From: Patescibacteria group bacterium
GTDB lineage: Bacteria > Patescibacteriota > Microgenomatia > PFEM01 > JAHIFH01
Assembly (NCBI GenBank): GCA_035529375.1
Contig: DATKWU010000017.1
Coordinates: 2,579-66,578 of the forward strand
Direction: 5' to 3'
Length of the DNA: 64,000 nucleotides
The translations under genes and the position numbers were made by a program. The notes beneath the pieces were generated by a model, which worked only from the letters and a program-made list of their open reading frames with translations, ran no database searches and was not told the origin of the DNA. Positions 1-29,175 of the stretch are shown here, one piece after another (the stretch's first letter is position 1; every line of letters starts with the position of its first letter).

Positions 1-61
1 CTTGGTTTACTTAGTTTGAGGAAGAAATATGTTTTACAAATTTATAATCGCAGAAAAGAAA

Positions 62-1366
62 ATGAAACAAAACAATAACCAGGCGGTCATTGGTCTTGAA
101 ATCCATGTTGAGCTAAAAACAAAATCAAAGATGTTTTGTCATTGTTCGGCTGACTATTTTGGTCATCAGCCCAACACTCATGCTTGTCCAGTCTGTCTTG
201 GTTTACCTGGAGCTTTACCAGTAGCTAATAAACAAGCGATTGAATGGACGATAATGGCTGGTTTAGCTTTTGGTTGTCAAATTTCTTTGTTTTCTAAGTT
301 TGACCGAAAGAATTACTTTTACCCTGATTTGCCTAAAGGTTACCAAATTAGTCAGTATGATCTGCCTTTTTGTCTTGACGGCAAAATGGGGCGGATAGGG
401 ATCAAGAGAGTTCACCTTGAAGAAGATACGGCCAAACTTATCCACACTAAGGATTCGACCTTAATTGACTTTAATCGCTCTGGCGTGCCTTTAATGGAGA
501 TTGTGACTGAACCAGACATAGAGAGTGCCCAAGAAGCTAAAGAGTTTCTTAAACGAGTCCAACAAATTCTTCGCTATTTGGATATTTCTGACTGTGATAT
601 GGAAAAGGGCTCAATGAGATTAGAAGTTAATATCAGCGTCAGAAAAAAAGGAGATAAATTACCAGATTATAAAGTAGAGATTAAAAATTTGAATTCTTTT
701 CGTTTTGTTGAAAAAGCCATTAATTACGAGATCAAAAGACAACTTCAATTAATTAAAAAAGGTGAAAAACCGATTCAGGAGACCCGAGGGTGGAACGAAG
801 CCAAACAAAAAACCTATACTCAGCGTTGGAAAGAAGAAGCCCAAGATTATCGCTACTTTCCCGAGCCAGATTTACCACCAATTCGCTGGAAAAAATCAGA
901 GATTGAAAGAATTAAAAAACTTCTTCCTGAATTACCTGAGGCAAGAAAAAGACGATTTATGGAACAATACGGATTGTCTGATTATCAGGCAACTATCTCG
1001 ACAGCGTCGATAGCACAATCTGATTATTTCGAAGAAGCAGTTAATCTCGGCAAAGAAATGGGGCTTGATCCTATTGGAACAGCAAACATAATTATTAATA
1101 AAAGAGTTGATGTTGATAAAACCCCTCCGGCTAAATTGGTCCGGATTTTAGTCGAGAAGAAAGCTATTTCTAAAATTTCTGATAAACAATTAGGAAAGAT
1201 TGTTAAAGACGTCATCAAGAAAAACAAACAAGTGGTGGCTGACTTCAAAAAAGGCAAAACTCAGGCAGTTGAAGCCTTGCTTGGTCAGGTGATGCGAGAA
1301 ACAAAGGGAGCAGCTAACCCTAACCAAACCCGAAAAATCCTTCTTGAAAAGTTGAAGCGGTTGTAA
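62..1366 (+). CDS. gatB: Asp-tRNA(Asn)/Glu-tRNA(Gln) amidotransferase subunit B
   Basis: The N-terminal motif AVIGLEIHVEL matches GatB, with the CHCSADYF/CPVCLGLPG zinc motif and a C-terminal YqeY-like tail. The ORF in the track starts at 29, but the likely start is the ATG at 62. Confidence 0.9.
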   Translation: MKQNNNQAVIGLEIHVELKTKSKMFCHCSADYFGHQPNTHACPVCLGLPGALPVANKQAIEWTIMAGLAFGCQISLFSKFDRKNYFYPDLPKGYQISQYDLPFCLDGKMGRIGIKRVHLEEDTAKLIHTKDSTLIDFNRSGVPLMEIVTEPDIESAQEAKEFLKRVQQILRYLDISDCDMEKGSMRLEVNISVRKKGDKLPDYKVEIKNLNSFRFVEKAINYEIKRQLQLIKKGEKPIQETRGWNEAKQKTYTQRWKEEAQDYRYFPEPDLPPIRWKKSEIERIKKLLPELPEARKRRFMEQYGLSDYQATISTASIAQSDYFEEAVNLGKEMGLDPIGTANIIINKRVDVDKTPPAKLVRILVEKKAISKISDKQLGKIVKDVIKKNKQVVADFKKGKTQAVEALLGQVMRETKGAANPNQTRKILLEKLKRL

Positions 1367-1383
1367 TATCGTATTGATTAATA

Positions 1384-2031
1384 ATGGAAGAACCAAGAAA
1401 AGAATTTTCTCCTGAAGAAATTGCCTCGATTGTTAGAGAAAACGAGGCTCTTCGTGAAGAAAATGCTGGTTTAAAAGAACGATTAACTTATGATTCAAAT
1501 ACGGGTCTTTTGCGAACTGAAGATGAGGGGCGACAAACAATCTTAAGAAAAATTGAAACGATTCATGGTCAAGGAAAGAAAGTTTGTCTTTTAAGGCTAG
1601 ATGTTAATGGCCTTAAAGATTTGAATGAGGCTTCTAGTCATGAAGAAGTCGATGAAATTTTTTTTCCTGACTTAGGTAAAAGACTTTTAGAATTGACTGG
1701 GGAGCAAGACGGAGTTGCCATGAGGTACCATGGAGATGAATTGGGTATTTTGGTACCTCTTGATGACGTTAGTGATATGACTAAAGCTGATTCTTTGGTC
1801 CATCGACTTGATAATTTTTATGTTAAAACACCAGGAGGTGAAAAGAGATTTACTTTTACGATTGGTATTGCTCATGAAGACGAGCCGGAAGTCAAGGAAA
1901 AGATAGGAAAATTAGACAATAAAGAAGGTGAGCTCTCTGAAGAGGGAAATCTTTTTACAGCTCTCTGTAAAGTAGCTGATCAAAGAGAAAGACAAGCCGA
2001 GAGAAAGAAAAAGAAAGAAAGAAATGGCTAA
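1384..2031 (+). CDS. Degenerate GGDEF-like domain protein with an N-terminal coiled coil (RYHGDEL in place of RxGGDEF)
   Basis: YDSNTGLLRTED resembles the DxLTGLxNRR motif. LLRLDVNGLKDLNE resembles the LLxxDLDxFKxxND motif. RYHGDELGILVP resembles RxGGDEFxxLLP. The 3' end overlaps the dnaE start by 8 nt. Confidence 0.5.
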   Translation: MEEPRKEFSPEEIASIVRENEALREENAGLKERLTYDSNTGLLRTEDEGRQTILRKIETIHGQGKKVCLLRLDVNGLKDLNEASSHEEVDEIFFPDLGKRLLELTGEQDGVAMRYHGDELGILVPLDDVSDMTKADSLVHRLDNFYVKTPGGEKRFTFTIGIAHEDEPEVKEKIGKLDNKEGELSEEGNLFTALCKVADQRERQAERKKKKERNG

Positions 2032-5000
2032 GTTTACCCATCTCCATGTTCACACTGAATATTCCTTGCTTGATGGTCTTTGCAAGATAGACGAACTGCT
2101 TCTCAAGGCGATTGAGTTGGGGATGGATTCAATTGCCCTAACTGACCATGGGGTGATGTATGGCGCGATCAAGTTTTATCTGAAAGCCAGGGATTTTGGG
2201 ATCAAGCCGATTATTGGCATGGAGGCTTATGTGGCCAATCGATCTCGCTTTGATAAACAAGCTAAACTAGGTTCTGATCAATTCCATCTCCTCCTTTTAG
2301 CCAAAAACGAGAAGGGTTATAAGAATTTAATTGAGTTAACCACCAAAGCTCATCTAGAAGGTTTTTATTATCGACCCAGGATTGATTTGGAACTGCTGAA
2401 GAAACATGCCGAAGGTTTAGTTGTCAGTACTGCCTGTCTCCAAGGTCAGATTCCCCAGTTACTAATGGAAGATAATGAAGAAGAAGCCAAGAAAAAAGCC
2501 AAAGATTTTTTAGAGATTTTTGATAAGAATTTTTATCTTGAACTAATGAGCAACAAGGAAAAAGTTCAGGATAAGGTTAATAAGGGTCTGGTCAAATTAT
2601 CTCGGAAATTAGGTATTCCCCTAATTGCCACCAATGACGTTCATTATGTTGAGAAGGATGATGCTGAGGCCCAAGACGCTCTCTTGGCGGTTCAGACTCA
2701 GAGGATGATTAACGATAAGAATCGATTAACGATGATTAACTCGCCAACTTTCTATCTGCGGTCTCAGGAAGAAATGATGCGTCTTTTTAAAGAAGTTCCG
2801 GATGCCATTGAGAACACGAGAAAGATTTCCCGGGTTTGTAACTTAGAAATTCCGATTGGCAACTGGATTTTGCCTAATTATCCTCTACCGGCCGGGGAAA
2901 GCGCCGAAGAGCATTTAAGAAGTTTGGTTAAAGAAAGAATGGCTAATCGCTATCCTAAAGAAATAAAGGAAGTTAAGGAGAGAGTTGAGTACGAGCTCGA
3001 CATTATTTGTAAAAAAGGTTTTGCCACCTATTTTCTGATCGTCCAAGACTTTGTTAACTGGTCAAAGCAGCAAGGTATTAGAGTTGGCCCAGGCCGAGGT
3101 TCAGTCGCTGGTTCAATTATTTCCTATATTTTAAGAATCACTTCAATTGATCCTTTGAGACATAACATACCCTTTGAACGTTTTATGAATCCTCAAAGGC
3201 CAACACCACCGGATATTGATATGGATTTTGCTGATGATCGGAGAGACGAAGTTTTGGATTACGTTATCAATAAATACGGCAAAGATCGAGTGGCCCAGAT
3301 TATTACCTTCAACGTTATGAAGGCTAAAGAATCGGTTCGAGATATTGGTCGGGTTTTAGGCATGCCTTATTCTGAACCCGATAAGGTTGCCAAATTAATC
3401 CCTGTTGGAATGAAAATTGATGAAGCGATTAAAACCATTCCCGAATTGGCGAGCTTGTATCGTCAGGAGAAATATAAAAAATTGCTTAATCTAGCCAAAA
3501 AAGTTGAAGGTGTTTCCCGACACGCCTCGACCCATGCCGCTGGCGTTGTCATTAGTGATAAGGAACTAATCGAATATGTACCTCTCCAAAAAGAAACTAA
3601 AGGTGAAAACATTATCACTCAATATGATATGTATGACTTGGATTTGAATGCGGCCGTTAATGAAGGTGAAGCTTTAGGCCTTCTGAAAATAGACTTCTTA
3701 GGTTTAAGAAATCTTACCACTTTAGAGAAAACCCTGGAGTATTTGAAGCAGACCAGGGGTGAAGAAGTTGATTTATCAGAAATAAATATTGAAGATAGCG
3801 AAGCTTTGAAAATGATTGCCTCAGGCGAAACGACCGGTATTTTCCAGTTAGAAAGTGCCGGCATGCGCCGTTTGGCCAAAAAATTAAAACCAAATAAATT
3901 TTCTGATATTGCCGCGATGGTGGCTCTTTATCGACCTGGGCCGATGCAGTGGATTGACGAATTTATTGAATCTAAAAAAGATCCCCAGAAAATTCGCTAT
4001 CCCCACCCTGATTTAAAAACAATTCTAGCTGAGACTTATGGAATTGCTGTTTATCAGGAGCAGTGTATGCAGATTGCCAATATTATGGCCGGTTACACCA
4101 TGGCCGAAGCCGATCGGTTGCGTTTAGCCATTGGCAAAAAGAAAAAAGCGGTGATGACTAGAGAGAAGAACAAATTTATTCAGGGGGCAATTAAAAACGG
4201 CTATAAAAAAGAAACGGCCGAGAAGATTTTTGCCCTGATTGAAAAATTTGCCGGTTATGGTTTCAACAAAGCCCATTCTACTTCCTACGCCATGATTGCC
4301 TATCAAACTGCTTATTTAAAGGCTCATTATCCGGTGGAGTTTATGGCGGCGTTGCTGACGGCTGAATCCGGTCGTTCTTCTGGTCCAGATAAGGATGAAA
4401 AAGTGACCCAAGCCGTTGAAGAAACCCGGCGAATGGGTATTAGAGTCCTTCGGCCAGACATTAACAAATCTAAAGTTGGTTTTACGATCGAGGATGATCC
4501 TCAATCGCCAGGCGGCAAAGCGATTAGGTTTGGTTTATCAGCTATCAAGAACGTTGGCGAAGCGGCCGTCGAGGTGATTATTCCGTCTCGGGAAGTTGGC
4601 GGATCATTCAATTCCTTAGTTGATTTTTGTCAGCGAGTTGATACCCAAAAGGTCAACCGGAAAGTTTTAGAGAGCTTGATTAAAGCTGGAGCGATGGACA
4701 GTTTTGGTAAAAGAGCGGCGATGCTCTCTGGTTTAGATAAGGTAAGGGTTCAAGGAGCCAAAATCCAAAAAGAAAAGATTAATGGTCAGACAAATCTTTT
4801 TGACGGTCAGGAGGTTGAGGGAAAAGTAAGTTTGAATCCAACCGATCAGCTGCCAGAGATGGAAGAGTTTACTCGCCAAGAGCTTTTATCTTTAGAAAGA
4901 GAATTGCTTGGATTTTATCTAACTGAACATCCTTTAGCGCCTATTCTCAACCAATTACGTCAGCAAAGAACCCATCAGCTTCAACAAATTAATCAGGAAA

Positions 5001-5500
5001 TTGGGGCCGGCCAGCGAGTCAAAATTGGCGGGATTATTACTGATTTAAGGATTGTTTTAACTAAGGCGACTTCAAGAGAGATGGCTTTTGTTAAAATCGA
5101 GGACGAGAGCGGCAAATTAGAAGTCGTCGTTTTTCCTAAAATATATGGTCAAACTAAAGGGATTTGGGCCAAAGACAGAATTGTTTCGATTCGAGGTAGG
5201 ACCGATCTTCGTGAAGGCAGTCAGAGCCTTATTGTCGAATCAGCTTCTTTATTGGAAGAAGAAAGTCAAGAAAAGGACGAAGAAAAACCTTTTGATTTTG
5301 AGATTGAAATCCCCAACAGAATTTCCTCTAGGAAATTAGTTGAGTTAAACAAAGTTTTTAAACAGAACCAAGGCAAGAGCAAGATCGCTCTTTACTTTGT
5401 TGACAACCTAGGTAGAAGTCGAAGAATGATTTTGCCTTATGGTGTTGATTATACTGAAAAAGTTAAGGAGAAGGTTAAAGAAATTGTTAGCCAAGATTAA
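2024..5500 (+). CDS. dnaE: DNA polymerase III alpha subunit
   Basis: PHP-domain N-terminus (HLHVHTEYSLLDG), the GRGSVAGS motif, and an OB-fold C-terminus in an 1158-aa product. Confidence 0.95.
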   Translation: MAKFTHLHVHTEYSLLDGLCKIDELLLKAIELGMDSIALTDHGVMYGAIKFYLKARDFGIKPIIGMEAYVANRSRFDKQAKLGSDQFHLLLLAKNEKGYKNLIELTTKAHLEGFYYRPRIDLELLKKHAEGLVVSTACLQGQIPQLLMEDNEEEAKKKAKDFLEIFDKNFYLELMSNKEKVQDKVNKGLVKLSRKLGIPLIATNDVHYVEKDDAEAQDALLAVQTQRMINDKNRLTMINSPTFYLRSQEEMMRLFKEVPDAIENTRKISRVCNLEIPIGNWILPNYPLPAGESAEEHLRSLVKERMANRYPKEIKEVKERVEYELDIICKKGFATYFLIVQDFVNWSKQQGIRVGPGRGSVAGSIISYILRITSIDPLRHNIPFERFMNPQRPTPPDIDMDFADDRRDEVLDYVINKYGKDRVAQIITFNVMKAKESVRDIGRVLGMPYSEPDKVAKLIPVGMKIDEAIKTIPELASLYRQEKYKKLLNLAKKVEGVSRHASTHAAGVVISDKELIEYVPLQKETKGENIITQYDMYDLDLNAAVNEGEALGLLKIDFLGLRNLTTLEKTLEYLKQTRGEEVDLSEINIEDSEALKMIASGETTGIFQLESAGMRRLAKKLKPNKFSDIAAMVALYRPGPMQWIDEFIESKKDPQKIRYPHPDLKTILAETYGIAVYQEQCMQIANIMAGYTMAEADRLRLAIGKKKKAVMTREKNKFIQGAIKNGYKKETAEKIFALIEKFAGYGFNKAHSTSYAMIAYQTAYLKAHYPVEFMAALLTAESGRSSGPDKDEKVTQAVEETRRMGIRVLRPDINKSKVGFTIEDDPQSPGGKAIRFGLSAIKNVGEAAVEVIIPSREVGGSFNSLVDFCQRVDTQKVNRKVLESLIKAGAMDSFGKRAAMLSGLDKVRVQGAKIQKEKINGQTNLFDGQEVEGKVSLNPTDQLPEMEEFTRQELLSLERELLGFYLTEHPLAPILNQLRQQRTHQLQQINQEIGAGQRVKIGGIITDLRIVLTKATSREMAFVKIEDESGKLEVVVFPKIYGQTKGIWAKDRIVSIRGRTDLREGSQSLIVESASLLEEESQEKDEEKPFDFEIEIPNRISSRKLVELNKVFKQNQGKSKIALYFVDNLGRSRRMILPYGVDYTEKVKEKVKEIVSQD

Positions 5501-5546
5501 AAGTTTTAAGACTTGACAAAATTTTTCACAGTTGTTAAGCTGAAAA

Positions 5547-5570
5547 CCCAGAGGCACCTCTGGTTTTTTG
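5547..5570 (+). terminator. Rho-independent terminator downstream of dnaE
   Basis: GC-rich hairpin ccagagg-ca-cctctgg followed by a TTTTTT tract. Confidence 0.5.
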
Positions 5571-5728
5571 TTGTCAGAGAACTTTACAGAACAATAGGGT
5601 GAGTGGAAAAGAATTAGATAATTGTTGCGAAGATAAAAAGGAAGAAAACGGAGTTCATTGAAGTGTCTTAATTGCGGCGAATTTATTCTATTTTAAAAGA
5701 GCAGGAAATTATTTTTTCAAATTAAAAG

Positions 5729-7399
5729 ATGAAATTTATTTTTGTTTCAGGTGGCGTTATCTCTGGTTTAGGTAAAGGGATTACCACCTCTTCAATCGCT
5801 CTTCTGCTTAAATCGCGTGGTTTTAGAGTGGCGCCGATTAAGTGTGATGCCTATGTCAATATTGACGCTGGCACGATTCGGCCTCAAGAACATGGCGAGG
5901 TTTTTGTTTGTAATGATGGAATTGAATGCGACCAAGATCTGGGTAATTATGAGCGTTTTCTCGGTGAAACTCTTTCTCGGGCCAATTATGTAACCACTGG
6001 CCAAGTCTATCAGGAAGTAATTCGGAAAGAACGAGCTTTTGAGTATGAGGGTGAAGATGTAGAAGTCGTTCCCCATATCCCTGAAGAAATGATCAGGCGT
6101 TTTAAAGAAGCCGGTAAGAAAATGAAGGCTGATTTTGTTTTGATTGAAATTGGCGGCACGGTAGGTGAATACCAGAATATTCTGTTTATTGAAGCTAATA
6201 GAATCATGAAAGTTAGAGATGGGGAAGAAGTTATCCATGTTCATGTCGGTTATCTTCCCACACCACCGAGTATTGGCGAGATGAAATCCAAACCAGTCCA
6301 AAATTCAGTCCGAACTTTAAACGAAACTGGTATCCAGCCAGATCTTTTAGTTGGTCGCGCTGGTAAGGATTTGGATAAGTGGCGAAAAGAACGACTGGCT
6401 TTGTTCTGCAACATTCCGGTTGAGAATATTATTTCCAATCCAGATGTAGAGTCAATTTATGAAGTACCTCTAATCTTGGATAGACAAAAAGTCGCTGAAA
6501 AAATTCTTAGGAAATTCAAGATGAAACCCAGAAAGAATAAAGATTTAAAAGAATGGCGGCAAATAGTTAAGAAGATAAAAAAGATAAGTAGGAATAATAA
6601 AAGAAAGGTGAGAATTGGGATGGTAAGCAAGTATCAACAAGTCGGTGCTTTTGAATTGGACGATGCTTATGTCAGCGTGGTTGAAGCGATTAAGCACGCT
6701 GCCTGGGCTAGTGATGTTAAACCAGAGATAATTTGGATTAACAGTGAAAAAATAGAAAAATTAGGTAAAAGTTATCTAGAGAATAAGATGAGTTTAGTGG
6801 ACGGAGTGATTGTCCCCCAAGGGTGGGGCAGTCGGGGAGTCGAAGGCAAAATCAAGGCGATTCAATATGCTCGGGAAAAGAAAACCCCCTATCTTGGTCT
6901 TTGTTTTGGGATGCAAATGGCGGTGATTGAGTTTGGCCGAAACGTTGTTAATCTAAAAAAAGCCAATACCATGGAGGCCGATCCCAAAACCCCCTATCCG
7001 GTCATTCATATTATGCCGGACCAAAAAGAATATTTAGCCAAAAGACAGTATGGAGGAACAATTAGATTAGGCGGTTGGAAGTGTCGAGTTTTGGCCGGTA
7101 CGAGACTAGCCAAAATCTATGGCAATTCAGGGATTATCTCTGAAAGACACCGTCATCGCTATGAATTTAATAACAAATATAGAGATAGATATGAAAAGGC
7201 GGGTATGAGGATTTCCGGGGTTTCACCAGACGGCAAATTAGTTGAGGCTATCGAAATCCCTGACCATCCTTTTTTCATTGGCACCCAATTTCATCCCGAA
7301 TATCAATCAAGCCTGCTCAAACCTCACCCTCTTTTTGTTGAGCTTGTTAAAACTTCTTTAAAGGAGCAGGTAAAAAATAATGATATCAGAGAAACCTAA
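5729..7399 (+). CDS. pyrG: CTP synthase
   Basis: N-terminus FVSGGVISGLGKG, a glutamine amidotransferase domain (GLCFGMQ), 556 aa. Confidence 0.95.
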   Translation: MKFIFVSGGVISGLGKGITTSSIALLLKSRGFRVAPIKCDAYVNIDAGTIRPQEHGEVFVCNDGIECDQDLGNYERFLGETLSRANYVTTGQVYQEVIRKERAFEYEGEDVEVVPHIPEEMIRRFKEAGKKMKADFVLIEIGGTVGEYQNILFIEANRIMKVRDGEEVIHVHVGYLPTPPSIGEMKSKPVQNSVRTLNETGIQPDLLVGRAGKDLDKWRKERLALFCNIPVENIISNPDVESIYEVPLILDRQKVAEKILRKFKMKPRKNKDLKEWRQIVKKIKKISRNNKRKVRIGMVSKYQQVGAFELDDAYVSVVEAIKHAAWASDVKPEIIWINSEKIEKLGKSYLENKMSLVDGVIVPQGWGSRGVEGKIKAIQYAREKKTPYLGLCFGMQMAVIEFGRNVVNLKKANTMEADPKTPYPVIHIMPDQKEYLAKRQYGGTIRLGGWKCRVLAGTRLAKIYGNSGIISERHRHRYEFNNKYRDRYEKAGMRISGVSPDGKLVEAIEIPDHPFFIGTQFHPEYQSSLLKPHPLFVELVKTSLKEQVKNNDIRET

Positions 7400-8009
7400 T
7401 TGGCAGACGCCAGAAGCAGAAGCAATCATTAATAGTCTAAAAGAGACTTTTCTTCAAGAAGCTTGGGTGGCTGACCAAAATTTGATTATTGCTCCCTCTT
7501 TAGATCGAAAGATAGATCCTAGAATTTTAGAAGCGGCTGCCCAAGTGGTTGATTTGAGGTTTAAGGGAATGGGAGTTAATAAGGTTTTAGGCATTCCTAA
7601 TTTAGGTCTTCCTTTTGCCACGGCCGTAGCTCTTACAATGCCTGGTGTAAGATTAGTTCCTGCTTGTAAAGAAACGGAAAAACCGCGGGCTTGGCTAGAT
7701 AATCTTTCGGCAGAAAGAAGGACTTTGGCTCTTAATGTTGTTTCCTCAATCAGATTTTCTCTGGTTGAAACAGACGATAGGATTTTGCTAGTTGATAATG
7801 TTTGTGCTTATGGTCAAACGGCCAGTGAGGTGATTCAAACTTTAAATCAGCAAACTGAAGCGGAAGTAGTGGGCTTAGCTGTTTTGATGAGTAAAGACTT
7901 TCAGGGAGGTTTAAGAAGAATTGAGGAAAGATTTAAGATTCCTACTTTAGGTGTCATTAGAATCCAAGAAATTGGTCCCAATCAGGAAATAATTCTAGGA
8001 CAGACATAG
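7380..8009 (+). CDS. Type I phosphoribosyltransferase family protein
   Basis: PRPP-binding motif ILLVDNVCAYGQTASE. Confidence 0.55.
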   Translation: MISEKPNWQTPEAEAIINSLKETFLQEAWVADQNLIIAPSLDRKIDPRILEAAAQVVDLRFKGMGVNKVLGIPNLGLPFATAVALTMPGVRLVPACKETEKPRAWLDNLSAERRTLALNVVSSIRFSLVETDDRILLVDNVCAYGQTASEVIQTLNQQTEAEVVGLAVLMSKDFQGGLRRIEERFKIPTLGVIRIQEIGPNQEIILGQT

Positions 8010-8032
8010 CTTCTTTGTGTTAGAATGTTTCA

Positions 8033-8563
8033 ATGAACTACTATACCCTTAAGATTTGTGGTTTGACCAGAAAACTACCAATTGTTTCCCTCGGACCAAA
8101 ATTAAAGATTGCTTCCTTTAATCTTTTAGGTGATGGTGAATTGGTTGAGGCGGTGGCAAAGGATTTGTCTAAAGAAGTTAAAAAATTTGATTTTGATTAT
8201 TTAGTCGGACCTGAGGTTAAAGTTGTTCCTTTACTCCAAGTTCTTTCTCAAAAACTTAAAAAACCCCGCTATATTATTCTTAGAAAAAATATCATGGGCT
8301 ATATGACTAAACCAATCACTAATAAATTTAAACCTAATCTTGTTCTTAATGGTCCGGATGCTGAGCTTTTAAAAGGTAAGAAAGTGATTATTGTTGATGA
8401 CGTTGTTTCCACGGGTAGAACAATCAGAGTGGTTAGAGATTTAATGAGAATGGCTGAAGCCGAAGTGGTCGCTGCAGTAGCAGTTCTTAAACAAGGCGAA
8501 AAAGAAGAAGAAATAGAAATCCCCTTTTTTCATCTTGGCAGTCTGCCCCTTTTTGGTACTTGA
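8033..8563 (+). CDS. Phosphoribosyltransferase (adenine/xanthine PRT-like)
   Basis: PRPP-binding motif KVIIVDDVVSTGRTI, product of about 176 aa. Confidence 0.6.
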   Translation: MNYYTLKICGLTRKLPIVSLGPKLKIASFNLLGDGELVEAVAKDLSKEVKKFDFDYLVGPEVKVVPLLQVLSQKLKKPRYIILRKNIMGYMTKPITNKFKPNLVLNGPDAELLKGKKVIIVDDVVSTGRTIRVVRDLMRMAEAEVVAAVAVLKQGEKEEEIEIPFFHLGSLPLFGT

Positions 8564-8710
8564 CACGATTTTCACAGATTGATACTCTGAATTCGTCAGA
8601 ACAATATTCACCTTAGCCGGGTGAAGAAAGGACAGATGAATAAAGCGGCTTTAGTTTTTTTATTTTACTTAGAGAAACAATCCTATTTTAGTTTCAAGTT
8701 TTCCCTACAT

Positions 8711-8740
8711 CAGAAAGCACCAAGATAAGCGGTGCTTTTT
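8711..8740 (+). terminator. Rho-independent terminator after the PRTase genes
   Basis: Hairpin aaagcacc-aagataagc-ggtgcttt followed by a T tract. Confidence 0.45.
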
Positions 8741-8834
8741 TTAGTGCTCGAAAAAGATGGTGTGGAGAAACCTGCACCTTAACATATTGTGAATAGATTT
8801 TGTCATCACTAAATCTTGAGAAAGGAGAGTGAGG

Positions 8835-9578
8835 ATGTCATACGACGATATTAGACGGGATGTGTGGGAGGCATTGCGGAAGGTAGCTGTCCCAGACTCG
8901 AGATTCCATTTCAACTTCGGGGAATTTATCCCCGATTTTCAAGGAAGTGAACGAGCTCTGGGAAGATTGCTATCTGAACATTCGTATCTGGAGGCAAAGT
9001 TTATCTTTATTGCTCCAGACAACTGCCTTGAGAGACTAAGAGCAATAGCTCTTAGTGAGGGAAAGGCTCTTATCGTTCCAACTTACTCGATAAAGCGGGG
9101 CTTTGTCTATCTGGATCCAAAGACAATACCATCGGGTAAAGAAGAATATGCAGCCCTTCTCGATGCAATGGAGGGGGTAGGGCAGCATGTCTCCTTGAAG
9201 GAGATCCAGGATCTAGGTCCGGTCGACCTCATGGTGAGCGGCGCTAGTGTTGTTAATCGAGAGGGTGTACGTCTCGGGAAGGGACATGGCTTCTTTGATT
9301 TGGAATGGGCTATGTTCTACGCTATTGGTGCGGCGAACCTTGAGACACCAGTGGTTGCCTTTGTTCATAGCTGCCAAGTGGTAGATATGCCAATCAACAG
9401 TTCTCCCTATGATACTGTCTGTGACATCATCGTGACCAATAAGGAGACAATTCGCGTTTCTTCTCCTCAAAAACCTACCTGCGGTGTCATTTGGGAAAGA
9501 CTTAATCCTGAACTCTTTCAGACGATTCCGCCACTTCAAGAGTTGAAGTCAATGCAAGAGAAAGGAGGTGAAGCATAA
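8835..9578 (+). CDS. 5-formyltetrahydrofolate cyclo-ligase family protein
   Basis: GKGHGFFD motif (cf. GKGGGYYD of the 5-FCL family). The ATG at 8835 is preceded by the RBS aaaggagag. GC content is higher than in the flanking sequence. Confidence 0.65.
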   Translation: MSYDDIRRDVWEALRKVAVPDSRFHFNFGEFIPDFQGSERALGRLLSEHSYLEAKFIFIAPDNCLERLRAIALSEGKALIVPTYSIKRGFVYLDPKTIPSGKEEYAALLDAMEGVGQHVSLKEIQDLGPVDLMVSGASVVNREGVRLGKGHGFFDLEWAMFYAIGAANLETPVVAFVHSCQVVDMPINSSPYDTVCDIIVTNKETIRVSSPQKPTCGVIWERLNPELFQTIPPLQELKSMQEKGGEA

Positions 9579-9676
9579 GGTCTGTTTGGCTTCCCTTGTT
9601 AGCCGTAAAAGGAAACAAGGGTTCACCTTTTAGCAAGGTGAAAAGGAGTGATCTTCGGTAAAGATGAAAGGAGAGG

Positions 9677-10525
9677 ATGATGGCGGTAAGCGCTGAAGTG
9701 TATACGAGACCAAGATCGCAGACTCGATTGATGGTTGCCTCTGCTGTTTGGGGGGCGATCATCATCCCCCTGGCAATACTCAGCAGTTCGTTTCTGAGCA
9801 TTCCAGGTGCATTTGGGGCAGGTTACTTCTGGTTGCCCCAGATCATGATGGTCTCGGGGGTCGTTTTCTTCGGCCCCTGGGGCATGTTGGCCGCGGCAGT
9901 CGGGACGTTCTTGGGTGGCATGTTCGCTGGGTCACCACTGGCCATCAACATAGGCCAGAACCCGATACCGGCTTTCCTAGGGAACACCTTTCTCTTCTAC
10001 ATTCTCTGGTTCGGCTACAAGTACAAGGTTCATATATGGGAGGGCTATTCCAATGGCCTTGCTATCAAAGTAGTCGGAGGAGAGAGGAGACCAACGGCTG
10101 AAGTCAACTGGTCAAGGGTGGCTGTCACAGGTATCGTTTTCGCTCTCACCATCGTCTTCGCGGTGGTGGTGGGTTTCAAGCTGGGGCCATACCTGGACGC
10201 AATGGGCCTGAAGGCGTGGGGCTATCCCCTCATCTTCTTGCTTACTCTACCGTGGTGGTGGGTTATCAAGCAGCTTGGTGGCCTTCGAGTTGATGGCTAT
10301 ATCGTCCTGGCCCTCATCGCCGTGATTGTCTCCAGCATAGCGAGTGCTGCCTTGGGCGCTTTCGCCTGGCAGACAGTTGGAGGAATGGGAGCCAGTGCTT
10401 GGGTTGTCGTTTTCCCCGGCTGGGCTCTCGGCGATATAGTAGCTGGCAGCTTAGGCATTCCTTTGATCTGGAGCTTTGCGGATGTTTTGGAGCGAAAGGG
10501 AATGCTCTGGCGGCCGCTTCGGTAG
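9677..10525 (+). CDS. Polytopic membrane protein, likely ECF-transporter substrate-specific (S) component
   Basis: About six hydrophobic helices, Gly/Trp-rich. It sits between a folate-metabolism gene and the EcfT/A genes. The GC content is high. Confidence 0.45.
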   Translation: MMAVSAEVYTRPRSQTRLMVASAVWGAIIIPLAILSSSFLSIPGAFGAGYFWLPQIMMVSGVVFFGPWGMLAAAVGTFLGGMFAGSPLAINIGQNPIPAFLGNTFLFYILWFGYKYKVHIWEGYSNGLAIKVVGGERRPTAEVNWSRVAVTGIVFALTIVFAVVVGFKLGPYLDAMGLKAWGYPLIFLLTLPWWWVIKQLGGLRVDGYIVLALIAVIVSSIASAALGAFAWQTVGGMGASAWVVVFPGWALGDIVAGSLGIPLIWSFADVLERKGMLWRPLR

Positions 10526-10595
10526 TCGAAGGTACAGCATGGAGGCTGGATAGTCTCGGGATTGTTCAGCCTCCATCAATCAAATCGAAAAGGAA

Positions 10596-12953
10596 ATGAA
10601 GATGATTAGGAAACATGGTTTAGGCAGGTTGAATCCTACGGCTCGGCTGGTCTTTTTCGTTGTAGTCAGCCTGGCAGCAACAATCGTCCATTCGTGGCCA
10701 GGGGTAATCTTTTTCCTGCTTCTTGGAATCGTTCTTCTCGCTGCAGGAAGAAAGTGCCCTAAGTCATCGATCATCACCCTTGTCAACGTTTTCATCCTTA
10801 CGGTGGCAGGTAATGCCCTTTTTGCTAAAGAAGGCAAGATTCTCTTTTCTTTTTTCGCCTTTCGTCTGTCACCTGAGAGTCTCGAAAAAGGCCTTTTGTT
10901 GGGTTGTCGAATTGTGGCGATGATTCTAAGTGCGGTCGCCTTTGCAGTGGCTACCCCAATGTATGAGTTTCTTCCTGCCGTTCGTGGCCTGCGGATTCGT
11001 AATTGGAGGATTCCCTTAGTAGCTGAACTCTATCTAATGGTCTTGCTTAGGTACGTCGAGGTCACTTGGTATGAGATCAAGCAGACCATGAAAGCGATGC
11101 TTATCAGGGGTGTCCAATTTGAGGGTTCGCCAATCAAAAAAATAATGGCTTTCAGGCAATTGATGATTCCGATGTTCTACAGAATTATCAATCATATCAG
11201 TGGTCAGGCGCTGGCAATCGACAGCCGTGGTAGTGTGAGGGCGGTTTCCGCTAAAGGGAAAATCGAAAAACAAGATCCGGCAGTTTCTATGGAGCAGGTT
11301 TCAGTGACCTATGATCTTAGCGATATAGAGGGAGAGAAGCTTCTAGCCCTAAGAGGGATAAACCTGACCATTCGGTCAGGCGAGACTTGTGCCCTCATGG
11401 GAGAAACAGGATCAGGTAGATCAACGGCCTCACTTCTTTGCTGTGGTCTGATTCCAATGAGTATCGGTCGAATGGCCGGAGAAGTGAAAATCTTTGGCTA
11501 CGATACTAAGCGGGCAGATCCATCGCTTTTGTCTAACCTGAGTCGGATTGTCTTTCCTTCGGCAATCCAAGGATTGGTCGGTTTGACTGTGGAGGATGAG
11601 CTTCTCCTTAGCCTACGACCAACATCAATTCCAAAAGAAGAATATGGTCGGGTAATGATTGAAGCGCTTGAGAGAGTTGGCTTGGATTCAGTTTTCTTGA
11701 ATCGCTTGACGTTGAGTTTATCAGGTGGCGAGATGCAACGGGTTGCTTTAGCATCCGCTATCATTGCCCAACCACCAATCTTGGTGCTTGATGACGTTTC
11801 GGCTCAACTTGATCCCAGAGCAAGACGAGAGGTAGCAACAACTCTTCTAGCTCTTAGGGAAACAATTGAAACGATTATTCTGACAGATCCATCGATCACC
11901 GTCTTACCGATAAACAAGTATGTTTTCCTTGAAGGTGGTCGAGTCAACCAGATCGTTTCTAAAGCAGGATCTGAATTGCTAGAAAGGGCACATGTGAGAA
12001 TTCCCCAATTACAAAAACTTGGGGATGTCCTAGGAGAGTCATTCGGGAGTATGGAAGAGGCAGTTGAGATGTTGAAAGGAGGAAAATCAGAAATCTGTTT
12101 CCGTAAAGAAGCGGGTAACTCTCCGAAAAACAGAGTGGTTCTAGAAGCAAAAGACATAACCTTCTCGTACGAGGCTAGTCTCGAACCGGCCATTCGGGGT
12201 TTGAGCACAGAGTTTCGAGGTGGCGAATTAACAGCCATTCTCGGCGCAAATGGTTCGGGTAAAACCACATTGGGGTTGATTCTAGCTCAAGCATACAAGC
12301 CCGAAATTGGCCAGATCCTAATCAACGGTGAACAAGTGAATTCGAAGATGCGGGGAGAGATTGGTTACGTTTTCCAGGAGCCAATGAGCCAGATGCTCAC
12401 ATTGACTGTTTTAGACGAACTAGCTTTCGGACCACATCAACTTGGATGGAGGAAAGAGGAGATTAAGGAATCTGTTGATGACGTAGCTCAAATCTTCAGT
12501 CTTCCTCTGAAAGAGAATCTGATGGATCTTAGTCCGGCCCAGTCGCGGCAGTTGGCCATAGGCTCAATCCTGACCATGAAACCTAAGGTGCTCATCTTAG
12601 ATGAGCCGACTAACAGTCTTGACGAGATGGAAGCTGTTAGATTAATGAGGATTTTGGAGGATCTACGAGCGAATGGGATGACGATCATCCTCATCACCCA
12701 CGATGTTGAATTAGCAGTTCAGTACGCTGATCGCATTATGGTCATGAAAGAGGGATCAATTCTCATTGATGGTTCGACTCGTCAGGTGATGTCAAAACCA
12801 GAGATTCTTATTAGAAGCGAGGTAACAGTACCTGATATCACTGACCTTTCTTTAAGGCTTTGGCCTCAAGAATTGCCAGCCCTCACTGTTGAGGAGATGG
12901 TCCAGATGTTATCTATTCACAATCATGTGTTTAGCCCCAGTAATTCTCGATGA
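10596..12953 (+). CDS. Fused ECF transporter T component plus two ABC ATPase domains (EcfT-EcfA-EcfA')
   Basis: The N-terminal roughly 220 aa are a membrane domain resembling CbiQ/EcfT. Two complete nucleotide-binding domains follow. The first has Walker [10 protein letters not shown], signature LSGGEMQRV and Walker B LVLDDV. The second has Walker [10 protein letters not shown], signature LSPAQSRQL and Walker B LILDEPT. Confidence 0.75.
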
Positions 12954-13017
12954 CGAGACTCTTACTGGGGCTTTTTGTTTCTTCCTTTTTGTCTCTATTT
13001 CTGTTAGAATTCGCTAT

Positions 13018-13422
13018 ATGGCCAATCAAATTAAAATTGATAAGACAACTTTAAATGTTGGTGATACGATTGTTGTCTATCAGAAAATTCAAGAAGAAAA
13101 AAAGATGCGAACCCAGCCGTTTGAAGGGATTGTCATTCGCATCAAAGGGCAGGGAGATAACAAAACTTTTACGGTCAGAAAGATAGCCGCCGCCAATATC
13201 GGTGTGGAAAGAATTTGGCCAGTTAACTCTCCTTGGATTGAGAAGATTGAAATTAAGCGAAGAGGCAAAGTCAGACGAGCCAAGCTTTACTACTTAAGAG
13301 ACAGGATCGGGAAAAAAGCCGTTAAGGTGAAAGAGAGAAAAGAAAAGAAAACTGGCGCTGAACAGAAGAAAGTTCGAAAAACAGCAAGAAAAACTAACAA
13401 ACAAACTCTTAAAAAGAAATAA
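13018..13422 (+). CDS. rplS: 50S ribosomal protein L19 with a Lys-rich C-terminal extension
   Basis: [45 protein letters not shown] matches the L19 consensus. The track ORF at 12889 is over-extended upstream. Confidence 0.85.
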
Positions 13423-13458
13423 ATTTTAAAACTGGTTGCAAAGTTAGTTAGAATTGTT

Positions 13459-14640
13459 ATGATTAATCTTGTGAAAAAACTAAAATTTCTTATTGCCTTT
13501 TTTATAATTATCTCTACTTTTTTCTTTTTTGCTAATCCTGTTTTGGCTCAAGAGACTCAAGAATTCAGTAATATCGTGGTTAAAAAAGGGGAGGTAATTG
13601 ATCACGATTTTTTTGCTGCCGGTAGCACTGTCACTATTTCTGGTGTTGTTAATGGTGATGTTTTTGCGGCTGGAGGTATTCTTGTTGTTGACGGCATTAT
13701 TAATGGTGATCTTTTAGCTGGTGCCGGGACAATAAATCTCTTAGGCAGGGTTAGTGATGATGTCAGGGTCGGTGGTGGAACACTTTTTGTTAATGGCGAG
13801 ATTGGTAAAAATTTAACTGTTGGTGGTGGCAATATTAATATTGCTGAAGGAGCCAGAATCGGCGGAAGCTTACTAGGTTTTGGTGGTGCTTTTGATATTC
13901 GAGGACCAATCGGAAAAGATGTCAATCTTTTCGCTGGACAAGCGACGGTTACCAGTCAGATTAACGGTAATCTCAAAGGATCAATAGAAAAACTGGTTTT
14001 GAGTTCTGAAGCTCAAATTTTAGGGGATTTAGAATATGAAAGTCCTCAAAAAGCCGACATTGATGAGAGGGCCTTGATTATTGGCAAAACAACTTTCAAA
14101 CCTTCTGAAACAAGAAAGCCAGAGAGTTTTAAGTCCTGGACATTCAAAGGTTGGAAGATTTTTAATCTTTTTTGGTTGGGTTTTTATATTAAGTTATCGG
14201 CTTTCATTATTGCTTTTCTTTTTGGTCTAGTCTTTCTTTATTTGTTTCCTAAAAGGATTGAGGCGATTACTAAAATTCTTAAAAATCGGCCTTGGCCAAG
14301 CCTTGGTGCTGGTTTTTTAGCCTTAATTTTGTTTGTTCCTTCAGTCATTCTCCTAGCCATAAGTTTGATTGGTATTCCCTTAATTCTTATATTTATTCCG
14401 GTTTTTCTCTTTTTAATTTATTTCAGCAAGATTTTTACGGCTCTTTGTTTGGGTAGAGAAGTTCTTTTTCGCTTTAATTCAAAGAAAAGTCAAGTTTGGG
14501 CGCTCTTAATTGGTTTATTGATTTACTATTTTCTGAGATTAATTCCTATTGTTAGTCCAATAATTGCTTTTGGCTTTATCAGTGCTGGTTTAGGCGCCTT
14601 TCTCCTTGATCAAAAATCACTCCGAACTTCAAAAAAATAA
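13459..14640 (+). CDS. Secreted beta-helix (bactofilin/polymer-forming-like repeat) protein with a C-terminal multi-TM anchor
   Basis: Signal peptide, a run of GxVNGDV/GGG repeats, and three to four C-terminal TM helices. Confidence 0.5.
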   Translation: MINLVKKLKFLIAFFIIISTFFFFANPVLAQETQEFSNIVVKKGEVIDHDFFAAGSTVTISGVVNGDVFAAGGILVVDGIINGDLLAGAGTINLLGRVSDDVRVGGGTLFVNGEIGKNLTVGGGNINIAEGARIGGSLLGFGGAFDIRGPIGKDVNLFAGQATVTSQINGNLKGSIEKLVLSSEAQILGDLEYESPQKADIDERALIIGKTTFKPSETRKPESFKSWTFKGWKIFNLFWLGFYIKLSAFIIAFLFGLVFLYLFPKRIEAITKILKNRPWPSLGAGFLALILFVPSVILLAISLIGIPLILIFIPVFLFLIYFSKIFTALCLGREVLFRFNSKKSQVWALLIGLLIYYFLRLIPIVSPIIAFGFISAGLGAFLLDQKSLRTSKK

Positions 14641-14685
14641 GACTTTCTGTCTTTTGTTTTTTTATTTCTGTTATAATGAATCAAG

Positions 14686-14853
14686 ATGCTGCCTATTTTA
14701 ATCAAAGTCGTTATTCTAGTTATCATTCTTCTGGTTGCTTTAAAGGCGCTGAAGATTGTCTTTATTCCTGTTAAAATTCTTAAATTAATTATCTTGGCGA
14801 TTGTTGTCATTGTCTTATTACTTCTTACTCAGGATTTTTTTGGTATTTTTTAG
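14686..14853 (+). CDS. Small hydrophobic membrane peptide of 55 aa (below the ORF-track cutoff)
   Basis: ATG at 14686 preceded by ttataat. It translates to MLPILIKVVILVIILLVALKALK..., which is entirely hydrophobic. It was not in the supplied track. Confidence 0.3.
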   Translation: MLPILIKVVILVIILLVALKALKIVFIPVKILKLIILAIVVIVLLLLTQDFFGIF

Positions 14854-14870
14854 AGAAGAAAGAATAGAGC

Positions 14871-14907
14871 TTGACAAGGAATAGTTTTTCCTTTTATAAA
14901 TATAAAT
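14871..14907 (+). promoter_or_regulatory. Sigma70-like promoter (TTGACA, about 18 nt, TATAAA/TATAAAT)
   Basis: ttgaca at 14871-14876 and tataaa at 14895-14900, upstream of the ATG at 14914. Confidence 0.35.
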
Positions 14908-14913
14908 AGAGTA

Positions 14914-15540
14914 ATGAAGAAAATTGGTTTCCTTTTAATTGCTTTCCTTTTGTTTTTCTTTTTAAGCCCCCGGGTTCTGGCTGAATGTACTACTTGCGCT
15001 CCTGCTCAAGTTCAACAAGAAACCCAGGAAGAAGTAGGGAATCAAGAGATAGAAAACAATCCGTCTTTGGGTGAGTTAAGAAGGAATGTTATTGAGAAAA
15101 GAGAAACGATTAGGGAACGGATTGAGGAGCGTCGGGCAACCATGGCAGCTCGGTTAGCTGAGCAGAAAAGAGAAAGAGTGAGAACCTTTTTTGGTCGTTT
15201 AACCCAGAGATTTCAAACTGCTATTAACCGTTTGGAAAGGCTGATTGCCCGAATGGAATCAAGGTTAGCCAAGATAGAAGAGAATGACGAAGAAATTGAG
15301 ACAGTCGAGATAAGGGAAAGTCTGGATAAGGCTAAAGATAAACTAGCTGAAGCCAGTGCTGCTTTATCAGAAGCCAAAACAAGCGTTGAAGACATTCTTA
15401 ATGGTGGTAATCCTCAAGAAATGTTTCAAGAAGTAAGAGATTTGCTTAAGGGGATTAAGGATGAGTTAATCGAAGTCCACCGTATTTTAGTTCAGGTTAT
15501 TGGCGATATGAGAGGCCTGCGGGTTGGCCAAGGAGAATAA
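14914..15540 (+). CDS. Secreted coiled-coil protein
   Basis: Signal peptide ending VLA, followed by a long Glu/Arg-rich helical region. Confidence 0.5.
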   Translation: MKKIGFLLIAFLLFFFLSPRVLAECTTCAPAQVQQETQEEVGNQEIENNPSLGELRRNVIEKRETIRERIEERRATMAARLAEQKRERVRTFFGRLTQRFQTAINRLERLIARMESRLAKIEENDEEIETVEIRESLDKAKDKLAEASAALSEAKTSVEDILNGGNPQEMFQEVRDLLKGIKDELIEVHRILVQVIGDMRGLRVGQGE

Positions 15541-15916
15541 AATGGAACCAGAAGAAATCACTCAACCAGTTCAAGAACCAACAGTACCACCAGAGCCAGT
15601 GGAGGTCCAGGAAAAGCCAGGCTTAATCAAAAGATTTTGGTTTATTCCCTTAACTTTTATTCTTCTTTTTATTCTCCTAATGGTTGGTTACCTCTTTACT
15701 AATCAGAACTTAGATATTTTTAATTTAGATTTTTTCAAGAAAACACCTCAAGTTAGTCCTACTCCTTCACCGGCAACCGAAAGTGAAACCGCTTCTTTAG
15801 AAAAGCAGGGGACGTCAGATGAGATTTCCGAGATAGAGGCAGATTTAAGTAAAACTGACTTAAGTGATTTAGACAAAGAATTGACTGATATTGAAGAAGA
15901 GCTAACTTCTCCCTAG
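15541..15916 (+). CDS. Single-pass membrane protein with an acidic Ser/Thr-rich C-terminus
   Basis: One TM helix (FWFIPLTFILLFILLMVGYLF). The start may be 15524 or 15541. Confidence 0.4.
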
Positions 15917-15944
15917 TCTTTTAAAATCTGCTACAATACTATTA

Positions 15945-16313
15945 ATGGAGAAAACAACCAAGGATTTTTTCAAAGCCTTTCCTTTTGCCTTCAATGGCAT
16001 TCTTAGTGTCATTAGAAAAGAAAGAAATATTAAGTTTCACCTTTTAGCTACCTTTTTAGTTGTTCTCCTAGGCTTGTTTTTAGGAATTAGCAAAACCGAA
16101 TGGCTGATTATCGTTCTGATTATTGCTGCCGTTCTAGCCGCAGAGGTTTTTAATTCATCTCTAGAGGGTATTTGCGATCTCTTAAAAGAAGAAAATCATC
16201 TTGATTACCAGAGAACTAAATTTATGAGGGATGCTTCGGCCGGAGCGGTTTTAATCTTAGCCATGGCTTCAGTTGTTATTGGTTTAATTATCTTCCTACC
16301 CTATTTTTTATGA
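15945..16313 (+). CDS. dgkA: Diacylglycerol kinase / undecaprenol kinase family
   Basis: 122 aa with three TM helices. The NIKFHLLAT...AAEVFNSSLEGICD pattern is typical of prokaryotic DgkA. Confidence 0.7.
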   Translation: MEKTTKDFFKAFPFAFNGILSVIRKERNIKFHLLATFLVVLLGLFLGISKTEWLIIVLIIAAVLAAEVFNSSLEGICDLLKEENHLDYQRTKFMRDASAGAVLILAMASVVIGLIIFLPYFL

Positions 16314-28955: not shown

Positions 28956-28956
28956 T

Positions 28957-29172: not shown

Positions 29173-29175
29173 TTC

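Follow-up and report, generated by a model that had tools for sequence, protein, structure and literature searches.

What does a member of the Patescibacteria take up by means of a three-gene block whose base composition sets it apart from its surroundings, and what would it do with the compound once inside? The window, by which we mean the whole stretch of DNA that was analysed, comprises 64,000 nucleotides (nt) from a Patescibacteria group bacterium (assembly GCA_035529375.1, contig DATKWU010000017.1, positions 2,579 to 66,578 of the forward strand), and positions given below refer to it unless another locus is named. The block occupies positions 8829-12953; it lies on the plus strand, as do the island around it, its signals and the phosphoribosyltransferase genes upstream. 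It consists of three open reading frames (ORFs): ORF1 encodes a relative of 5-formyltetrahydrofolate cyclo-ligase (5-FCL, also MTHFS), ORF2 a polytopic membrane protein, and ORF3 a fusion of the membrane and ATPase parts of a transporter of the energy-coupling factor (ECF) kind. An earlier interpretation, here called the sequence-only reading, had seen in it a horizontally acquired module for the uptake and salvage of a vitamin, perhaps folate. We favour, with a probability of about 0.55, an ECF-type importer that is dedicated to an adenine-type purine, or to a precursor of one, and coupled to an ATP-dependent MTHFS-like enzyme. What the data show are the identities of the genes, their architecture, the constancy of the three-gene set, its place on an island and the counts of its neighbours; the part of ORF2 as the substrate-capturing (S) component, the direction of transport, the chemistry and the substrate we infer. 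Compared with known ECF transporters, the system stands out by a novel membrane subunit, a fully fused and asymmetric energising module and an obligatory MTHFS-like partner enzyme. Patescibacteria and SAR11 rely on scavenged building blocks, so that their imports set ecological dependencies, and in five phyla the cassette provides a compact, portable unit of uptake plus processing.

A fused and asymmetric energising module

ORF3 (10596-12953, 785 amino acids (aa)) joins an EcfT-like membrane domain and two ATP-binding cassette (ABC) domains in one chain, as the sequence-only reading had proposed. PF02361 matches aa 11-212 with 65.7 bits (cut-off 25) and PF00005 matches twice; the best NCBIfam matches are the ECF ATPase models TIGR04520/04521, at about 297 bits and thus slightly under their whole-protein cut-offs of 315 and 330, while TIGR01166 (cbiO) scores 222 bits against 212. 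The T domain (EcfT/CbiQ; 10596-11300) contains two x-R-G coupling motifs, LIRG and DSRG, which are kept across 14 family members, the second reading NLG in SAR11. The fusion had been remarked upon as a departure from the usual three separate proteins, but this genome is no exception, a chain of 750-800 aa being the norm of the family; only loci L005/L010 (T-A plus A') and L021 (T plus A-A') have it split.

The two nucleotide-binding domains (NBDs) had been described as complete, which a 14-member motif alignment does not bear out. NBD1 (11313-12005) has an intact LSGGE signature, a Walker A motif reading GSGRST, a Walker B motif reading LDDV, with Asp-Asp for Asp-Glu, and no H-loop histidine. 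NBD2 (12138-12953; matched by PF00005 and, over aa 517-771, by TIGR04520/04521) has a canonical Walker A, a Walker B with the Asp-Glu pair and an H-loop, whereas its signature is altered to LSPAQ. This asymmetry is family-wide: NBD1 has no H-loop histidine and usually Asp for the catalytic Glu, and the NBD2 signature follows the pattern LxPAxxR, while the substitution of Arg for the Walker A Lys in NBD1 is found in the Patescibacteria members and the cyanobacterial locus L022. In a head-to-tail dimer the motifs would therefore give one consensus and one degenerate ATP site, the former built from the Walker A, Walker B and H-loop of NBD2 and the signature of NBD1, the latter contributed by NBD1. 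Taken together, the domain content supports the prediction that the block encodes a dedicated importer of the ECF type in the style of group I, with transport itself a presumption from this content.

The membrane partner

ORF2 (9677-10525, 282 aa) is predicted to cross the membrane about eight times, with both termini inside, and not six times as had been counted before. Two observations suggest that it may act as an S-like, substrate-capture subunit. In about 60 loci, spread over five phyla, an ORF2-like gene adjoins genes for T and A, and distant relatives at the detection limit (L065 to L067) likewise lie beside CbiQ/ABC genes, one such relative (P0205) also having a 5-FCL-like neighbour. 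In addition, the first helix reads V20-A-S22-A23-x-W25-x-A27, A23 being nearly invariant and A27 invariant, and an AxxxA motif has been reported to mediate the docking of S-components on EcfT (PMC11109136).

Judged by its sequence, ORF2 appears to represent a very small family without known relatives: a profile run against 1.84 billion cluster representatives retrieved 16 at E<=1e-3, neither Pfam nor NCBIfam has a match, the Pfam S-component families included, and comparison with the sequences of Protein Data Bank (PDB) chains gave no meaningful match. Its AlphaFold2 model has a mean confidence (pLDDT) of 76. A relationship to MASE1 was considered and dropped, the scores being 17-18 bits against a cut-off of 29.8 in inconsistent registers, and so was an internal duplication, for which hhalign gave a probability of 0.3% when the N-terminal half was aligned to the C-terminal half.

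An MTHFS-fold enzyme outside the cyclo-ligase orthologues

ORF1 (8835-9578, 247 aa; an alternative GTG start lies at 8829) had been called a 5-formyltetrahydrofolate cyclo-ligase-like protein with the motif GKGHGFFD. Likeness in family, motif and fold stands, PF01812 (the 5-FCL family) matching with 54 bits, above its gathering score; identity of function does not follow, since the equivalog model of true cyclo-ligases, TIGR02727, reaches 30.2 bits against a cut-off of 84.9 and NF007661 16.4 against 343. The AlphaFold2 model of ORF1 (pLDDT 88) was compared with the PDB using Foldseek, and the best matches are MTHFS structures (2jcb, 1ydm, 1sou, 1wkc, 3hy3-6) with E-values from 6e-11 to 2e-8 at 16-19% identity, followed by eIF2B and ribose-1,5-bisphosphate isomerase. 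A profile of the ORF1 family finds the sequences of solved MTHFS proteins at E-values of about 0.4-1 only; its matches to chains of designed PPR proteins were discarded as a repeat artefact, and ORF1 itself matched sequences of PDB chains only marginally. Invariant across the family are R9 and the string G-x-R-x-GKGHGFFD-x-EW, the ATP/Mg loop, whose GKGHGFFD aligns with RGKGYYD of human MTHFS; the motifs PDSRFH, TPDN, YxIxRG, LDGxE and HDCQ are invariant and specific to ORF1. On these grounds ORF1 is predicted to have the MTHFS fold without being an orthologue of 5-formyltetrahydrofolate cyclo-ligase, and it is probably an ATP-dependent enzyme, the reaction itself being our conjecture.

The ORF1 family is widespread at 53-61% identity. 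Three Alphaproteobacteria, Labrys, Martelella and Falsirhodobacter (L008 4849-10747, L068 3924-9750 and L069 4054-9759), share one operon with no riboswitch: next to a divergent RpiR/SIS regulator, two 5-FCL-like genes enclose those for an NMT1-type binding protein, an ABC ATPase and a double-length permease, in this order. As the family thus flanks an NMT1-type ABC importer as well as the present cassette, it travels with uptake systems of two unrelated kinds. In Chloroflexota the gene directly upstream of the cassette (L002 6000-7046, with homologues in L013, L015, L017, L019 and L037/L038) encodes a regulator that joins a GntR DNA-binding domain to a 5-FCL-like one, so that the sensor is paralogous to the enzyme of the operon. 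L005/L010 have instead a second, apparently inactive 5-FCL-like paralogue, in which GKGHG has become SQGPS.

Distribution of the three-gene set

Among 185,579 species genomes 17 loci were detected, namely ten in Chloroflexota, one in Actinomycetota, three in Cyanobacteria and three in Pelagibacteraceae, and a metagenome scan found 38 further loci, many of them marine and SAR11-like. The hosts of the set belong to Chloroflexota, Actinomycetota, Cyanobacteria and SAR11, with a few Patescibacteria besides, and its gene order, 5-FCL-like gene, ORF2-like gene, T-A-A', is constant across the five phyla at every locus long enough to judge. A neighbour-joining tree of ORF3 unites the Patescibacteria in a single clade that has the Chloroflexota clade as its sister, with Cyanobacteria, SAR11 and Actinomycetota outside. 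The set is undescribed in the accessible literature, a coverage that leaves out Rodionov et al. 2009 and Pribat et al. 2011, where it may be listed as an ECF system.

The cargo: purine, pyrimidine or folate

Indications of what the cassette might carry come from the genes that keep it company. Directly upstream of the island the host has two genes for purine-type phosphoribosyltransferases (PRTases), one resembling xanthine PRTase (XPRT; 7380-8009) and one resembling adenine PRTase (APRT; 8033-8563); the latter scores 181 bits against a cut-off of 143 on NF005592, the adenine PRTase subfamily, and the former scores weakly on XPRT models. The APRT-like gene lies upstream of the cassette in all four cassette-bearing Patescibacteria contigs, and both PRTase genes are also kept in L070 (GCA_964653685.1), the closest relative found, where the same slot is taken by another ECF system together with enzymes of purine nucleotides. 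An adenine deaminase of the TIGR01178 type (525-639 bits against 472.5) is found 11-55 nt downstream of ORF3 in three divergent lineages of Chloroflexota, and another in the Actinomycetota genome, there about 1 kb upstream of the cassette, while ten SAR11-type contigs have a non-homologous COG1816 deaminase (NF006850, 504-525 bits against 419) in divergent orientation about 75 nt upstream; an NCS2 nucleobase permease lies beside the distant relative L065. Because two unrelated deaminase families and a PRTase converge on the cassette in four phyla, which is hard to call chance, an adenine-type purine or its precursor is the favoured cargo, and the convergent neighbourhood gives transporter and enzyme a concrete substrate class. 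The 'purine ABC transporter' of SAR11 in PMC11698098 is apparently a different system, as its text and supplements hold no cyclo-ligase, ECF or cobalt-type annotations.

The cassette could then work as follows. ORF2 would capture the substrate at the outer face and dock on the T domain of ORF3 through the AxxxA motif of its first helix, and the NBD pair, with one catalytic and one degenerate ATP site, would drive the movement inwards. ORF1, which has kept the GKGHGFFD loop for ATP and Mg, would spend ATP on converting or trapping what has been taken up, most likely a purine of the adenine type or else a precursor, ring-opened or formylated, and the product would pass to the APRT-like and XPRT-like PRTases in the host, or to adenine and adenosine deaminases in the other phyla. 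Plain adenine is the less satisfying cargo, since the ATP-dependent enzyme is an obligatory member of the set and a compound in need of conversion would explain it better.

Several observations weigh against the purine assignment. The model of ORF2 has no fold match in the PDB (best Foldseek E 0.25), the folds of S-components included. Adjacency to a deaminase is missing in several Chloroflexota (L013, L015, L017, L019), in the cyanobacteria and at some SAR11 loci, and in the host the cassette is a terminator-bounded unit of its own, so that the APRT neighbourhood may be an accident of the insertion site. With respect to the substrate, adjacency to adenine enzymes is circumstantial; the literature on 5-FCL paralogues points to thiamin and not to purines (PMC3223725, PMC4120688); and plain adenine would render the obligatory ATP-dependent partner unnecessary. 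It is on account of the missing adjacencies and the separate transcription unit that our confidence in a purine cargo is moderate.

A more specific version, which we put forward tentatively and consider rather unlikely as it stands, makes the cassette a salvage route for ring-opened or formylated purines: 4,6-diamino-5-formamidopyrimidine (FapyAde) would be imported, ORF1 would re-close the imidazole ring, and the adenine formed would go to APRT or adenine deaminase; as a speculation, a formamidoimidazole carboxamide might be a second candidate. ORF1 would activate the N-formyl group at the expense of ATP and the neighbouring amine would attack it. The proposal fits the chemistry of MTHFS, because 5-formyltetrahydrofolate is itself a 5-formamidopyrimidine, and it fits the context, because in L070 the slot holds an ECF system and a protein with an inosine monophosphate (IMP) cyclohydrolase domain only, which also closes a ring on a formamide. 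If true, it would assign a reaction to a long-orphan family of 5-FCL paralogues and reveal a new source of purines for SAR11 and Patescibacteria.

Salvage of a thiamin pyrimidine is a competing possibility that we regard as unlikely. The cargo would be hydroxymethylpyrimidine (HMP), aminomethyl-HMP, formylamino-HMP or a fragment of damaged thiamin, and ORF1 would be one of the COG0212 paralogues of 5-FCL. SAR11 cells are HMP auxotrophs, aminopyrimidines resemble adenine, and the importer flanked by the alphaproteobacterial ORF1 family uses a binding protein of the NMT1/THI5 type. Moreover, a nucleobase carrier able to move HMP has been described (PMC5874261), and COG0212 paralogues are reported to be non-5-FCL proteins associated with thiamin (PMC3223725, PMC4120688, PMC5041015), although ORF1 is set beside the proteins studied by family and not by orthology. 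Yet no thiamin biosynthesis or salvage gene occurs among the annotated neighbours, and those that do recur score above the curated thresholds of models for adenine PRTase and for adenine or adenosine deaminase. Nor is there a riboswitch for thiamin pyrophosphate (TPP), and on this point the folate hypothesis fares no better: with Rfam at the gathering threshold the window gave two tRNAs only, and riboswitches for TPP and for tetrahydrofolate (THF) were absent from the window and from the 28 related loci scanned, the three alphaproteobacterial operons among them. A permissive scan of 8400-10700 at E<=10 produced one match at chance level, unrelated to any riboswitch, so that the leaders 8564-8834 and 9579-9676, where the sequence-only reading had advised looking for a THF riboswitch, have no such match even at this setting.

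In the folate hypothesis ORF2 would be a FolT-like importer of 5-formyl-THF or folate, and ORF1 a true cyclo-ligase yielding 5,10-methenyl-THF. It draws on the PF01812 match, the MTHFS fold and the retained GxGxGxxD ATP loop, and ECF systems are classical folate importers (PMC4525288). Against it, besides the missing riboswitch, stand the low scores of ORF1 on both cyclo-ligase models and its faint profile similarity to solved MTHFS proteins, the lack of resemblance between ORF2 and any Pfam S-component family, those for folate included, and the neighbourhoods of the cassette, in which no folate-related gene recurs in any lineage and the recurrent enzymes metabolise adenine. 5-FCL paralogues assayed by others were without 5-FCL activity (PMC3223725), here too a comparison with ORF1 by family and not by orthology. 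A folate cargo, as the sequence-only reading proposed it, is accordingly very improbable, and the adenine-type purine or precursor remains our preferred cargo. The enzyme deserves attention, as 5-FCL paralogues are routinely given the wrong annotation of a folate enzyme and have been without an assigned reaction since at least 2011.

A replaceable island

The jump in GC content at 8.8-12.95 kb reported from the letters was confirmed by calculation, in windowed GC and at third codon positions alike, and a uniform composition was not seen. GC is 48.3% in the block (8829-12953) as against 39.5% in the remaining window; non-overlapping windows of 4.1 kb average 39.7% (standard deviation 3.0) and attain the value of the block elsewhere only near 30 kb, in a region resembling a type IV secretion system or an integrative conjugative element. 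In 500-nt windows GC climbs from 0.36-0.40 to 0.46-0.55 across about 8.75-12.95 kb and then drops back. GC at third codon positions (GC3) is 0.45, 0.65 and 0.45 in ORF1, ORF2 and ORF3, against a window median of 0.33. Wherever else in the window GC3 is high, the genes serve conjugation and integration, for which reason an elevated GC3 can be taken to mark imported DNA in this genome, and the block is supported as compositionally foreign.

These other stretches form two blocks with a joint GC3 range of 0.48-0.67. The block at 28479-34934 encodes a phospholipase D-like nuclease, an M23 peptidase, a VirB4/TraG-type ATPase, PrgI and two VirB2-type pilins, and that at 46868-52504 a relaxase (Replic_Relax), a type IV coupling protein and, beside a tRNA, a large serine recombinase, whose ORF call (50754-52493) overlaps the tRNA gene (52433-52504). 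Together they resemble an integrative conjugative element.

Alignment to L070 places the cassette within an island of about 4.25 kb (8746-12995) that comprises the three-gene operon with its own upstream box and terminator. Nucleotide identity to L070 is 88-92% over window positions 1-8665, 13003-13432 and 14624-16185 (about 89% for the flanks), and the interior does not align; the left edge falls at about 8746, just 3' of the terminator of the upstream PRTase gene, and the right at about 12995. The island is replaceable, since L070 holds other genes in the same slot between the APRT-like gene and rplS, and the locus thus shows alternative ECF cassettes swapped into one site between closely related Patescibacteria. 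Neither flanking direct repeats nor an integrase or recombinase were found within or beside the block, and a search for the borders of a mobile element ended without a result.

The contents of the L070 slot (L070 10847-18545) are a 275-aa membrane protein unrelated to ORF2 (GC3 0.66), a separate CbiQ T component (GC3 0.49), a fused A-A' ATPase, a PRTase-like protein, a PurH fragment with the IMP cyclohydrolase domain only, an oxidoreductase dependent on flavin adenine dinucleotide, and PurA; that a cyclohydrolase should lack the transformylase domain is in itself unusual. A second difference from L070 lies at 13433-14623, where the window has an ORF (13459-14640, 393 aa) for a Gly-rich repeat protein with a hydrophobic C-terminal half and no Pfam match. 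L070 has no such ORF, and rplS there directly precedes the homologue of the window from 14624 onward.

How, then, did the cassette come to lie here? Host proteins carry the name 'Patescibacteria group bacterium', and homologues of the upstream PRTase are named Microgenomates, Shapirobacteria and Woesebacteria. The nearest homologues of the cassette (65-76% identity) belong to the same lineage and have the same arrangement: three more distant Patescibacteria contigs (L001/L027, L028 and L029) carry it at the same position with the same GC excess. This partly contradicts the expectation, made from the sequence alone, that the nearest relatives would lie outside the host lineage, yet the hosts in question are only about 62% identical to the window in DnaE and about 58% in rplS, compared with 69-76% in ORF2 and ORF3, and the GC anomaly is kept in all of them. 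At the same time, for many contigs whose APRT homologues are closer (82-92%) there is no ORF2 cluster at 76-100% identity. The cassette is therefore a patchily distributed, replaceable unit. As hosts so divergent share the same anomaly, its acquisition is old or it has been exchanged among lineages: either it is old at the locus and was replaced in the lineage of L070, or recombination within the conserved flanks carries it from one related lineage to another. The idea of horizontal acquisition is upheld by the foreign composition, by the insertion relative to L070 and by the closest homologues outside Patescibacteria, which are those of Chloroflexota, but the cassette is not a recent one-off import.

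The opposite view, that the operon is anciently resident and vertically inherited and that amino-acid composition or selection raised its GC, strikes us as unlikely. ORF2 is GC-rich relative to its neighbours even in SAR11 (0.39 against 0.27-0.30), and part of its GC is hence compositional; the anomaly persists at the same locus in hosts of only about 62% DnaE identity; and in the ORF3 tree the Patescibacteria clade is sister to that of Chloroflexota and not nested inside it, two phyla that group together in some deep phylogenies. However, GC3 is independent of amino-acid content and still stands at 0.45-0.65 against 0.33, and host-like GC in ORF1 and ORF3 of SAR11 demonstrates that amelioration does happen. 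Vertical inheritance is also hard to square with the absence of the cassette from L070 at the same slot and from the contigs with closer APRT homologues, with its presence in only 17 of 185,579 species genomes, and with the conjugation and integration genes that make up the other high-GC3 blocks of the window.

Signals in the non-coding DNA

The left edge of the island is marked by the intrinsic terminator of the APRT-like gene on the host side (8707-8745, AAGCACC...GGTGCTTTTTTT), which is kept in the cassette-less L070 with a compensatory change in its stem and also in L001, L028 and L029. Just inside the island lies a conserved box of 41 nt (8757-8797, TGGTGTGG-N-GCACCTTRACATTGTGAATAG), nearly invariant in the four cassette-bearing Patescibacteria contigs and missing from L070, which by its conservation may be a candidate promoter or operator of the cassette; the ribosome-binding site of ORF1, AGGAG, follows at 8823-8827. 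Between ORF1 and ORF2, RNAalifold predicts two conserved RNA hairpins (9593-9641), the first with the invariant loop AGCCGUAAAAG on a covarying stem of 8 bp. Across five sequences, the four Patescibacteria contigs and L009, a metagenomic contig without an assigned lineage, 7 of 16 pairs keep their pairing through double changes. The motif has no Rfam match and is confined to these loci (window 9593-9641, L001 7943-7990, L028, L029 and L009 10780-10815). Direct reading reveals a further hairpin, the inverted repeat I3, in the spacer of ORF2 and ORF3 (10539-10576) with no run of T, and the intrinsic terminator of the cassette (12933-12977, AGCCCCAGTAA...TTACTGGGGCTTTTT), which overlaps the stop codon of ORF3; L001 and L028 have an equivalent hairpin with a different stem sequence, and L070 has none.

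A regulatory leader or riboswitch upstream of ORF1 was considered and rejected: a promoter-like site, a hairpin at 8607-8625 and the terminator at 8707-8745 are all found in L070 too, and so must be parts of the upstream gene's 3' region. Nor does the stretch upstream of ORF1 fold in an exceptional way (z = -1.4). The hairpin at 8607-8625 (UUCACC-UUAGCCGG-GUGAA) shows compensatory stem changes in L001, L028 and L029, and in its loop it is similar to the intergenic hairpin of the cassette, where the loop reads AGCCG. In the Anaerolineales contig L015 a cyclic di-GMP-I riboswitch (9905-9994, minus strand, 76.6 bits) lies about 2.4 kb downstream of the cassette beside an unannotated ORF of 502 aa and is probably unrelated to it.

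Comparison with known systems

The enzyme of the cassette is best seen against two relatives. With 5-formyltetrahydrofolate cyclo-ligase (MTHFS/YgfA, EC 6.3.3.2; 2jcb, 1ydm, 1sou, 3hy3) ORF1 has in common the predicted fold, the Pfam family, an N-terminal Arg and the Gly-rich ATP/Mg loop, but it is only 16-19% identical, about 50 residues longer, fails the equivalog models, possesses invariant motifs of its own and has no folate context. The COG0212 paralogues of Pribat et al. 2011 (At1g76730 and prokaryotic homologues) are likewise non-5-FCL members of PF01812, often beside transport genes, a picture with which the alphaproteobacterial operons agree; the comparison is one of family and not of orthology. 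Such paralogues are described as having neither 5-FCL activity nor an assigned function and as associated with thiamin metabolism (PMC3223725, PMC4120688, PMC5041015). In contrast to this link, the recurrent neighbours of ORF1 metabolise adenine, and neither a TPP riboswitch nor a thiamin gene was seen in the loci scanned.

The transporter part invites comparison with the group I ECF systems. The ATPase domains of the cassette are fused as in YkoEDC, the thiamine transporter of Bacillus subtilis, where YkoD is an A-A' fusion (PMC5037267), and the first helix of the membrane partner carries a small-xxx-small motif as in YkoEDC, BioMNY and CbiMNQO. Unlike in these systems, T, A and A' occur in a single chain of 750-800 aa in the order T-A-A' with an asymmetric NBD pair, the membrane partner has about eight predicted helices with neither a detectable sequence relation to S-components nor a structural match, no riboswitch is present, and a gene for an MTHFS-fold enzyme is the obligatory third member of the operon.

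As for the asymmetry itself, heterodimeric ABC systems with one degenerate site are familiar from TM287/288, TAP and CFTR, which are exporters of the type IV fold. As in these systems, one NBD of the cassette would supply the Walker A, Walker B and H-loop for the consensus site while its partner gives the LSGGx signature, the second site having a degenerate signature and no catalytic residues; the difference is that here the asymmetry resides in an ECF-type importer module fused to a T domain, and not in an exporter.

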